3,817 nt of DNA from a virus (taxonomy: Duplodnaviria > Heunggongvirae > Uroviricota > Caudoviricetes): the IMG/VR virus record IMGVR_UViG_2671180921_000020, positions 1-3,817 of that record. One strand, given 5' to 3'. The notes under the pieces were generated by a model. The model saw nothing but the letters and a program-made list of their open reading frames with translations, made no database searches and had not been told where the DNA came from. The position numbers and the translations under genes are program-made. Each line of letters starts with the position of its first letter. The stretch's first letter is position 1. Positions 1,041 through 3,817 of the stretch are shown here, in pieces.

Positions 1041-1399
1041 TTAATCGAACCAAACTGGAGCACATCCTCGAGTATGCCAGGCAGCAGAGGCGCTTTGGCC
1101 AGCTTTGTAAAATTCTGCCAGGAGATATGGTTGAAATCGTGGAGATTGCCATGCGTAAGACTGGCAACTCTCCGGTAACTCCGGATGGTTGGATAAGCTG
1201 TAGTGAGCGAATGCCAAACGATAAACAGTATGTTTGGTGTTGGGGGAAGTCTTACGGCTGGACTGAGTGCGATACCTTCGAAGGGTATTACGATTGGTCG
1301 AGAAACAAATGGTGGGCAATTACTGACGATGGGGAAGAACCGGCATCGAAAGTAACCCACTGGATGACGCTATCGGAGCCACCGCAGGAGGTGAAGTGA
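1037..1399 (+). CDS. DUF551-like phage protein
   Basis: 120-aa ORF whose ATG at 1037 overlaps the upstream TGA (ATGA). Trp-rich C-terminal region (GWISCSERMP...YVWCWG...WW...VTHWMTLSEPP) matches the motif I recall for DUF551 phage proteins. AGGAGG (1386-1391) is embedded near its 3' end for the next gene. Confidence 0.6.
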   Translation: MINRTKLEHILEYARQQRRFGQLCKILPGDMVEIVEIAMRKTGNSPVTPDGWISCSERMPNDKQYVWCWGKSYGWTECDTFEGYYDWSRNKWWAITDDGEEPASKVTHWMTLSEPPQEVK

Positions 1400-1683
1400 T
1401 GGACTCCTTCGCGAAATATACGATTATTGACTGGGTAGCCTTCCTTCAGGTTTTGCTCATCTGGTTTTATATGGCTTACAGGAGTGGACAGTGGATTGTC
1501 AGTGTAGCCTGTAGCAAGGGATGGCGTTGGTGGAACCGAAAGAATAAAAAAGCGCTGGCCTTGGATTCGTTTTACGAAGCATTCAATCTTAACAGCCTTC
1601 AGCCTGGTTCTGTCGTTGTAGTCACCACTCAAAGCGGCATGACGATACAAATTCACAAGCCAAAGGAGGAAGGTCGTGGCTAA
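1399..1683 (+). CDS. Small single-pass membrane protein (94 aa), hypothetical
   Basis: ATG at 1399 overlaps the upstream stop (TGATG), 7 nt after AGGAGG. Residues ~8-28 (YTIIDWVAFLQVLLIWFYMAY) form an ~20-residue hydrophobic stretch followed by a basic cluster (RWWNRKNKK), consistent with an N-out/C-in membrane helix. The track start at GTG 1396 is also possible. Confidence 0.55.
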   Translation: MDSFAKYTIIDWVAFLQVLLIWFYMAYRSGQWIVSVACSKGWRWWNRKNKKALALDSFYEAFNLNSLQPGSVVVVTTQSGMTIQIHKPKEEGRG

Positions 1684-2565: not shown

Positions 2566-2769
2566 CAGGAGTGGAACGCACGCCAGCGACGCCCAAGAAG
2601 CCTTGAAACAGTTCGTCGATGGGTGCGCGAATGCAGGATATTCCCTCCTCCGGTTAAGGATGGAAGAGAGTATCTGTTCCACGAATCAGCGGTAAAGGTT
2701 GACTTAAATCGACCAGTAACAGGTAGCCTTTTGAAGAGGATCAGAAATGGGAAGAAGGCGAAGTCATGA
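2551..2769 (+). CDS. xis: Excisionase Xis (lambda-type, 72 aa)
   Basis: Protein MYLTLQEWNARQRRPRSLETVRRWVRECRIFPPPVKDGREYLFHESAVKVDLNRPVTGSLLKRIRNGKKAKS matches lambda Xis as I recall it. GGAG RBS sits 8 nt upstream, and the 3' end overlaps the int start by 23 nt as in lambda. Confidence 0.9.
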   Translation: MYLTLQEWNARQRRPRSLETVRRWVRECRIFPPPVKDGREYLFHESAVKVDLNRPVTGSLLKRIRNGKKAKS

Positions 2770-3817
2770 GCGCCGGGATTTACCCCCTAACCTTTATATA
2801 AGAAACAATGGATATTACTGCTACAGGGACCCAAGGACGGGTAAAGAGTTTGGTTTAGGCCGAGACAGGAGGATAGCAATCACTGAAGCAATACAGGCCA
2901 ATATTGAGTTATTTTCAGGACACAAACACAAGCCTCTGACAGCGAGAATCAACAGTGATAATTCTGTTACGTTACATTCATGGCTTGATCGCTACGAAAA
3001 AATCCTCGCCAGCAGAGGAATCAAGCAGAAGACACTCATAAATTACATGAGCAAAATTAAAGCAATAAGGAGGGGGCTGCCTGATGCTCCACTTGAAGAC
3101 ATCACCACAAAAGAAATTGCGGCAATGCTCAATGGATACATAGACGAGGGCAAGGCGGCGTCAGCCAAGTTAATCAGATCAACACTGAGCGATGCATTCC
3201 GAGAGGCAATAGCTGAAGGCCATATAACAACAAACCCGGTCGCTGCCACTCGCGCAGCAAAATCAGAGGTAAGGAGATCAAGACTTACGGCTGACGAATA
3301 CCTGAAAATTTATCAAGCAGCAGAATCATCACCATGTTGGCTCAGACTTGCAATGGAACTGGCTGTTGTTACCGGGCAGCGAGTTGGTAATTTATGCGAA
3401 ATGAAGTGGTCTGATATCGTAGATGGATATCTTTATGTCGAACAAAGCAAAACAGGCGTAAAAATTGCCATCCCTACAACATTGCATGTTGATGCTCTCG
3501 GGATATCAATGAAGGAAACACTTGATAAATGCAAAGAGATTCTTGGTGGAGAAACCATAATTGCATCTACTCGTCGTGAACCGCTTTCATCCGGCACAGT
3601 ATCAAGGTATTTTATGCGCGCACGAAAAGCATCAGGTCTTTCCTTCGAAGGGGATCCGCCTACCTTTCACGAGTTGCGCAGTTTGTCTGCAAGACTCTAT
3701 GAGAAGCAGATAAGCGATAAGTTTGCTCAACATCTTCTCGGGCATAAGTCGGACACCATGGCATCACAGTATCGTGATGACAGAGGCAGGGAGTGGGACA
3801 AAATTGAAATCAAATAA
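2747..3817 (+). CDS. int: Site-specific tyrosine recombinase, lambda integrase Int (356 aa)
   Basis: Full-length ORF starting MGRRRSHERRDLPPNLYIRNNGYYCYRDPRTGKEFGLGRDRR (lambda Int N-terminal arm-binding domain) and ending ...SDTMASQYRDDRGREWDKIEIK. Catalytic residues are at lambda positions (R212 codon 3380-3382, HELR at H308/R311, Tyr342 codon 3770-3772). TAA stop at the last bases of the window. Confidence 0.93.
   Translation: MGRRRSHERRDLPPNLYIRNNGYYCYRDPRTGKEFGLGRDRRIAITEAIQANIELFSGHKHKPLTARINSDNSVTLHSWLDRYEKILASRGIKQKTLINYMSKIKAIRRGLPDAPLEDITTKEIAAMLNGYIDEGKAASAKLIRSTLSDAFREAIAEGHITTNPVAATRAAKSEVRRSRLTADEYLKIYQAAESSPCWLRLAMELAVVTGQRVGNLCEMKWSDIVDGYLYVEQSKTGVKIAIPTTLHVDALGISMKETLDKCKEILGGETIIASTRREPLSSGTVSRYFMRARKASGLSFEGDPPTFHELRSLSARLYEKQISDKFAQHLLGHKSDTMASQYRDDRGREWDKIEIK

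Follow-up and report, generated by a model that had tools for sequence, protein, structure and literature searches.

The gene at positions 1399-1683 of the phage DNA analysed here (the window, 3817 bases) belongs to the DUF4752 family, and its product is, on the sequence evidence, very probably a single-pass inner-membrane protein. The most likely role for the DUF4752 protein is that of an accessory lytic-phase membrane factor acting on a component of the host envelope. A preliminary description of this DNA is partly supported by our analysis: its structural half is supported in silico, while its functional half is unsupported.

Operon setting and reading frame

The window is a tightly packed chain of + strand genes ending in lambda-type xis and int, and it corresponds to the early-left (exo-xis) portion of a lambdoid temperate phage. 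Its features are:

1-267, + strand: small Cys-containing ORF, 88 aa (phrog_4030)
254-670, + strand: Ead/Ea22-like gene
672-1040, + strand: phrog_60/5117 gene
1037-1399, + strand: DUF551 gene, the upstream neighbour (PF04448, E 3.7e-15)
1399-1683, + strand: DUF4752 gene, the target, 94 aa plus TAA
1676-1957, + strand: ASCH-like gene, the downstream neighbour (phrog_625, E 6.9e-49; weak ASCH match, E 0.019)
1958-2343: AT-rich stretch containing a 61-aa ORF at 2078-2263
2344-2511, + strand: 55-aa ORF (phrog_676)
2551-2769, + strand: lambda-type excisionase gene (xis)
2747-3817, + strand: lambda-type integrase gene (int)

The window's modules are all known, and the exact mosaic occurs in no phage record or complete E. 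coli genome, the best coverage being 61% among phage records and 66% among complete E. coli genomes. The exo-xis region is pL-driven, is on within minutes of infection, and is highly variable outside a small conserved cassette (PMC10834534). RefSeq names a homologue of the downstream ASCH-like gene 'ASCH domain-containing protein'. At the left end of the window, ORF 1-267 encodes a C-terminal CPFC motif with a weak zinc-ribbon-like match, and its 3' end shares 14 nt with the Ead/Ea22-like gene, which starts at a GTG.

The DUF4752 ORF runs from an ATG at 1399 to a TAA stop at 1681-1683 and encodes 94 aa, just where the preliminary description had placed the gene. A GTG at 1396, one codon upstream of the ATG, is an alternative start. 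The following signals lie at the two ends of the gene:

1386-1391, + strand: Shine-Dalgarno AGGAGG of the DUF4752 gene, 7 nt before the ATG, read from the sequence
1397-1401, + strand: TGATG stop/start overlap of the DUF551 stop with the DUF4752 ATG
1664-1669, + strand: AGGAGG of the ASCH-like gene, inside the DUF4752 3' end

The TGATG overlap is an arrangement indicating that translation of the DUF4752 gene would be coupled to that of the DUF551 gene. On the other side, the GTG of the ASCH-like gene (1676) overlaps the DUF4752 3' end by 8 nt, and the same 8-nt overlap is found in identical form in phage ST104. When the window was compared with four divergent genes (47-66% protein identity, with dS near saturation), dN/dS was 0.09-0.32 in both the N- and C-terminal halves, and the forward frame is open in all seven homologues checked. 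By these measures, 1399-1683 reads as a genuine coding gene under purifying selection. We also considered an antisense ORF of 144 aa (1288-1722, - strand) that spans the whole DUF4752 gene and is open in the window and in one other locus (L002). It was rejected as a gene because it is not conserved, being interrupted in 5/7 homologues, and for the same reason we read it as a by-product of the codon usage of the forward gene.

A simple sigma-70 consensus scan found no promoter-like site in 1-1960. Given this and the overlaps at both junctions, the DUF4752 gene would depend on the upstream early transcript. The proposal that the gene is embedded in an early operon therefore holds up well, with the missing promoter, the overlapping junctions and the shared orientation with xis/int all in agreement.

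This setting bears on whether the gene might be a prophage-expressed exclusion or moron gene, constitutive in lysogens like SieB, HK97 gp15 and Cor. A small membrane protein found in the prophages of about 10% of E. coli genomes would fit such a role, but neither a promoter-like site upstream (by the consensus scan) nor a framing pair of terminators marks the gene out, it sits within an early operon under repressor control with apparent translational coupling to both neighbours, and PADLOC gives no match. The GC content of the gene is also the same as that of its neighbours and unlike that of the AT-rich island just downstream. Reliance on read-through early transcription argues against a classical lysogen-expressed exclusion gene, so we regard this reading as unlikely and give it very little credence.

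The AT-rich island itself (1958-2343) has a GC content of 0.33-0.37, compared with 0.44-0.55 across most of the window. Its 61-aa ORF (2078-2263) matches phrog_16329 and no Pfam family, and a terminator-like hairpin comes after it at 2305-2324. The island looks like a moron-type insertion, unlike the DUF4752 gene. Just upstream of xis, the stop of the 55-aa ORF (2344-2511) falls within a strong bidirectional terminator-like hairpin at 2501-2520 (8 pairs, 6 of them GC, then a T-run). Antitermination would be needed for early-left transcripts to reach xis/int.

Family membership and genomic neighbours

The window protein is a full-length match to Pfam DUF4752 (PF15944; E 7.1e-36, 122.6 bits against a cutoff of 27), covering profile positions 2-84 of 84, and it also matches phrog_667 (E 9.8e-39). 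The identical 94-aa protein has already been deposited from 75 contigs as 'DUF4752 family protein', and it is thus an already catalogued member of a family that has no assigned function. No Pfam family other than DUF4752 matched at E <= 0.1, no PADLOC-DB model matched the protein at the same threshold, and searches of NCBIfam, PADLOC and Rfam returned nothing relevant for the gene or protein. Sequence searches against solved structures gave only chance-level matches (E >= 0.066), and a literature search for DUF4752, PF15944 and phrog_667 found no paper.

A word-indexed search recovered 47 relatives of the protein, and an exhaustive profile search recovered 46 cluster representatives, many of them 82-108 aa long and only 16-31% identical. 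All 31 aligned relatives pass the PF15944 model. The window protein contains the family motifs DW...IWFYM, GWRWWNRK, LALDSFYEAF and PG...T.SG (alignments A1 and A2), and it is a typical member of the DUF4752/phrog_667 family, agreeing in length, motifs and architecture with the relatives examined. Near-identical DNA is present in 51 phage records, including HF4s (99.3%), ST104 (orf7), CUS-3, HK106, mEp043/213, IME10, Kapi1 and many Stx phages, and the gene occurs in 543 of 5426 complete E. coli genomes (about 10%). A scan of representative genomes yielded only two loci, and annotated DUF4752 members also occur in SPN1S (an epsilon15-like phage), Klebsiella phages and D6 (a P1-like phage).

In several Stx phages (NC_008464.1, which is Stx2 phage 86, and PV189400/403/407, which are phi296/315/419) the DUF4752 copy matches over 284 nt instead of 285 and aligns only as two tblastn pieces. 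These copies are probably frameshifted pseudogenes. Their apparent frameshifts, together with the presence of the gene in only about a tenth of the complete E. coli genomes, suggest that the DUF4752 gene is dispensable.

Two matches had to be interpreted with care. A 2749-bp contig (JAJXBQ010000315.1), on which a DUF4752 gene of 97% identity has genes resembling Ea22 and DUF551 as neighbours, is filed under a 'Segatella copri' metagenome-assembled genome; it is almost certainly a mis-binned Escherichia phage contig. A 1151-aa protein (P0052) gave ten matches to profile positions 31-53, the Trp/Arg-rich juxtamembrane stretch, and these probably reflect a low-complexity repeat, not homology.

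A DUF551 gene lies directly upstream of DUF4752 in 65 of 86 loci, and we noted that the DUF551 copies can be only 35-62% identical to that of the window where DUF4752 is 95-99% identical. Judged from these identities, the contrast is textbook lambdoid mosaicism with junctions at gene boundaries. DUF551 was rejected as a family-wide constant partner, as the 65/86 figure comes from close loci and the gene is absent in distant clades.

Downstream, an ASCH gene is present in 52 of the 84 loci with enough sequence, always with the same overlap, and absent in 32. The overlap conserved in ST104 had been a lead for an obligatory DUF4752-ASCH two-gene module, which we rejected given these counts and the absence of ASCH from divergent loci. 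The presence of ASCH tracks the C-terminal version of the DUF4752 protein, of which there are two: 94 aa ending in ...KPKEEGRG and 92 aa ending in ...KPKEEK (window 1664-1683, compared across L007-L086). All 52 loci with ASCH downstream have the long form, the short-form loci are all without ASCH, and nine long-form loci also lack it. This pattern places a mosaic junction within the last few DUF4752 codons.

Homologues of DUF4752 are found in lambdoid early-left regions (the window, L001 and, from Enterobacter, L002) and in nin regions, with the replication genes on one side and ninB on the other (L003, L006, L098, L168 and L169). A further homologue, 64% identical, is located at 4330-4614 of a Mu-like phage (L004, Logan ERR13998663), directly after Mu-type A/B transposase genes; the gene downstream of it encodes an unrelated protein of 103 aa that has no similarity to ASCH, and it overlaps by 8 nt as in the window. 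An Ead/Ea22-like gene is near DUF4752 in the window, L002, L093 and L098. We found no constant neighbour across the loci examined. Judging from gene content, the common denominator of the DUF4752 loci is a delayed-early lytic operon, and the variability of the neighbours indicates that DUF4752 moves between early operons as an independent single-gene module.

Predicted membrane anchor and structure model

The sequence of the DUF4752 protein is MDSFAKY-TIIDWVAFLQVLLIWFYMAY-RSGQWIVSVACSKGWRWWNRKNKK-ALALDSFYEAFNLNSLQPGSVVVVTTQSGMTIQIHKPKEEGRG, and after the short N-terminal tail it divides into the following parts:

1420-1479, + strand: predicted transmembrane helix, codons 8-27, TIIDWVAFLQVLLIWFYMAY (hydropathy scales, AlphaFold2)
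1480-1551, + strand: Trp-rich basic juxtamembrane helix, codons 28-51, RSGQWIVSVACSKGWRWWNRKNKK (charge count, hydrophobic moment)
1552-1680, + strand: predicted cytoplasmic mini-domain, codons 52-94 (AlphaFold2, conserved motif, dN/dS)

The Kyte-Doolittle 19-residue maximum is 1.77, at residues 8-26 (threshold 1.6), while the nine other window proteins reach at most 1.04. The same hydrophobic segment has a Wimley-White octanol 19-mer sum of -12.6 kcal/mol and an Eisenberg mean hydrophobicity of 0.71-0.77 with a low helical moment, and only 204 of 5000 shuffles of the protein (about 4%) reach an equal hydrophobic peak. On a simplified biological (Hessa) scale, the sum for residues 8-26 is a marginal +3.1 kcal/mol, and on that same simplified scale the sums of the relatives are -2.5 to +4.7 kcal/mol, mostly positive. 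We attribute the marginal sum to the invariant D11 and the near-invariant Q17.

Residues 28-51 contain 7 K/R and no D/E, compared with a single K/R in residues 1-7. The preliminary description of an N-terminal hydrophobic helix of ~20 residues followed by a positive cluster is therefore accurate, the two parts being residues 8-27 and 28-51. Windows starting at residues 33-40 have a hydrophobic moment of 0.42-0.49 and a negative mean hydrophobicity, as expected for residues 28-51 forming an amphipathic helix that would lie on the membrane surface. In the close clade, G41 to R47 (GWRWWNR) and K51 are invariant and K48 is nearly invariant.

The hydrophobic/basic layout is kept in 31 of 32 homologues that are 16-97% identical. 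The same proportion of relatives has a Wimley-White octanol minimum of -5.7 to -14.8 kcal/mol, and the same proportion has 0-1 K/R in the N-flank against 4-10 K/R in the 25 residues past the hydrophobic segment. The order of elements across the family is a short tail (often ending D-W), a hydrophobic block, a polar K/R-x-G-x-W helix turn, a short amphipathic block, a basic cluster, a helix motif A-[VIL]-[ND]-x-[FL]-Y-[DE]-A-F, and finally a P-G...T.(S/K)G..[IV].[IM] hairpin. Since hydrophobicity and charge asymmetry persist even as the sequence diverges, the segment is probably a real transmembrane anchor, and the charge bias predicts an N-out/C-in topology.

We think it improbable that this is not a membrane protein at all and that its hydrophobic helix is instead buried at the centre of a soluble homo-oligomeric helical bundle, whose basic stretch and hairpin domain would bind nucleic acid. 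The conserved hydrophobicity and charge asymmetry form the strongest computational argument for a transmembrane anchor. The earlier suggestion of a small protein anchored in the inner membrane is upheld by the agreement between three hydrophobicity scales, the family-wide charge bias, and the AlphaFold2 helix.

Other ways of reading the N-terminus were rejected by inspection. For a cleaved signal peptide, the N-region is not basic and the flank past the hydrophobic core is strongly basic, and for a lipoprotein, there is no conserved Cys or lipobox in the DUF4752 relatives. In layout, the protein resembles single-span N-out/C-in proteins of the Pf3 coat type, which have a short N-tail that is uncharged or acidic, then a single hydrophobic helix, then a C-flank of basic character; the likeness is in topology and insertion logic only, not in homology or function. 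In proteins of the Pf3 coat type, such a charge pattern drives N-out insertion, typically through YidC.

AlphaFold2 was run with 11 and with 31 sequences, giving a mean pLDDT of 65.3 in each case. In these models there is a long helix at residues 5-45 (or 9-45) with pLDDT up to 89, within which residues 8-27 are helical at pLDDT 82-89, after which come another helix (50-61) and a beta-hairpin (72-76/82-86). In the C-terminal part the pLDDT is only about 55-64, the pTM is 0.32, and the C-terminal model was no better with the deeper alignment of 31 sequences. Fold searches gave no informative match. The C-terminal part does carry the conserved motif LALDSFYEAF...PG...T.SG..I.I. Going by the models, a single helix and a single hairpin are unlikely to form a stable monomeric domain, and from this small size we infer oligomerisation or binding to a partner. 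A MinE-like C-terminal domain (topological-specificity fold) was considered and rejected, with an hhalign probability of 0.14%.

Function and comparison with known systems

On balance, we lean slightly towards the view that the DUF4752 protein is a bitopic inner-membrane protein of the antitermination-dependent early-left (exo-xis) operon that acts on a host membrane component. An N-tail of about 7 residues would face the periplasm, one transmembrane helix, roughly residues 8-27, would cross the membrane with its conserved polar D11 and Q17, and the Trp-rich basic amphipathic helix 28-51 would run along the cytoplasmic membrane face. At about 40 residues, the mini-domain made up of the cytoplasmic helix and beta-hairpin would be too small for independent folding, and it probably dimerises or docks on a partner. 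Lacking its own promoter, the gene would be expressed only during infection or induction. The gene would be dispensable, a single-gene module exchanged among the early operons of different temperate phages. Most probably, the protein would bind some component of the host inner membrane in the early part of lytic growth and modulate it; it might, for example, block further DNA entry or alter the physiology of the envelope or of division. Membrane insertion, N-out/C-in topology, oligomerisation, expression timing and a host target are all features that we infer, and we found no sequence evidence for a specific host target. The site of action would be the cytoplasmic face of the inner membrane or its interior, and the leading sub-hypotheses are that the protein keeps out incoming DNA during the lytic phase or that it modulates the physiology of the host envelope or of host division.

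The preliminary description had named a Kil-like or superinfection-exclusion function, and this claim finds no backing: Pfam returns only DUF4752, PADLOC returns nothing, and the protein is unrelated to Mu Kil. Superinfection exclusion in the lytic phase, in which the membrane-anchored product blocks the entry of later phages' DNA during replication, like T4 Imm, seems to us unlikely as the specific function. A small, N-terminally anchored protein from the early operons of several unrelated temperate phage types is what such a system would look like, and the apparent dispensability and mobility of DUF4752 are typical of accessory competition genes. However, the only Pfam match (E <= 0.1) is DUF4752, there is no PADLOC match, and the predicted layout puts most of the protein in the cytoplasm, while many blocks to injection work from the periplasm.

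A Kil-like division inhibitor, binding ZipA, FtsA or the Min system at the membrane and causing filamentation, is distinctly unlikely in our view. Predicted early expression is compatible with it, as is a cytoplasmic domain held at the membrane, the site of divisome assembly, and the homologue in the Mu-like phage occupies the slot directly after B, where Mu carries kil; but this positional argument comes from a single locus (L004). Homology to Mu Kil was rejected at an hhalign probability of 0.13%, no Pfam Kil-family match was found, and, as noted above, a MinE-like C-terminal domain is ruled out. Mu Kil and the ST104/P22 Kil have no long hydrophobic stretch in their translated sequences (the ST104/P22 Kil was compared by eye only). 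In phage ST104, the operon with the DUF4752 gene already includes kil, along with a gene annotated as superinfection exclusion.

At a level of confidence that we would call doubtful, DUF4752 might be a mechanistically new class of early-lytic, membrane-anchored host-takeover or competition factor that approaches its target machine in a way unlike Kil, SieB or Imm. If so, the factor would be common to lambdoid, P22-like, epsilon15-like, P1-like and Mu-like temperate phages, and it would act on a host inner-membrane machine through its helix-hairpin domain and the conserved polar residues inside the membrane. The gene itself is ordinary and already catalogued, and its sequence gives no pointer to an unexpected mechanism.

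The variable lambdoid exo-xis and nin regions are classic "viral dark matter", and DUF4752 is present in roughly one in ten complete E. coli genomes, Shiga-toxin prophages included, and in temperate phages of several unrelated types. An early membrane protein that is conserved and recurs this widely is a reasonable candidate for a host-modulating or phage-competition role. It would be easy and cheap to test, because the laboratory phages HK106, mEp043 and mEp213, which infect K-12, carry the gene. By word search, a modelling review of exo-xis proteins (PMC8614690) and a study of Ea22 (PMC10834534) contain no mention of a transmembrane or membrane-anchored exo-xis protein, and DUF4752 is not discussed in either.

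Among known systems, the Kil proteins of lambda/P22 and Mu are, like DUF4752, small accessory products of early operons, and they differ from it in the two respects described above, the lack of a long hydrophobic stretch in Mu Kil and ST104/P22 Kil and the coexistence of kil with DUF4752 in ST104. The early membrane blockers of DNA entry of the T4 Imm type, which we take to be proteins of about 80-95 residues with an N-terminal hydrophobic anchor, early and non-essential, resemble DUF4752 in these features. In the Pfam search (E <= 0.1), DUF4752 showed no detectable sequence relationship to these proteins, and the DUF4752 phage is temperate. With the lambda exo-xis proteins (Ea22, Ea8.5 and Orf60a/61/63/73), DUF4752 has in common its genomic neighbourhood and early, pL-driven expression.
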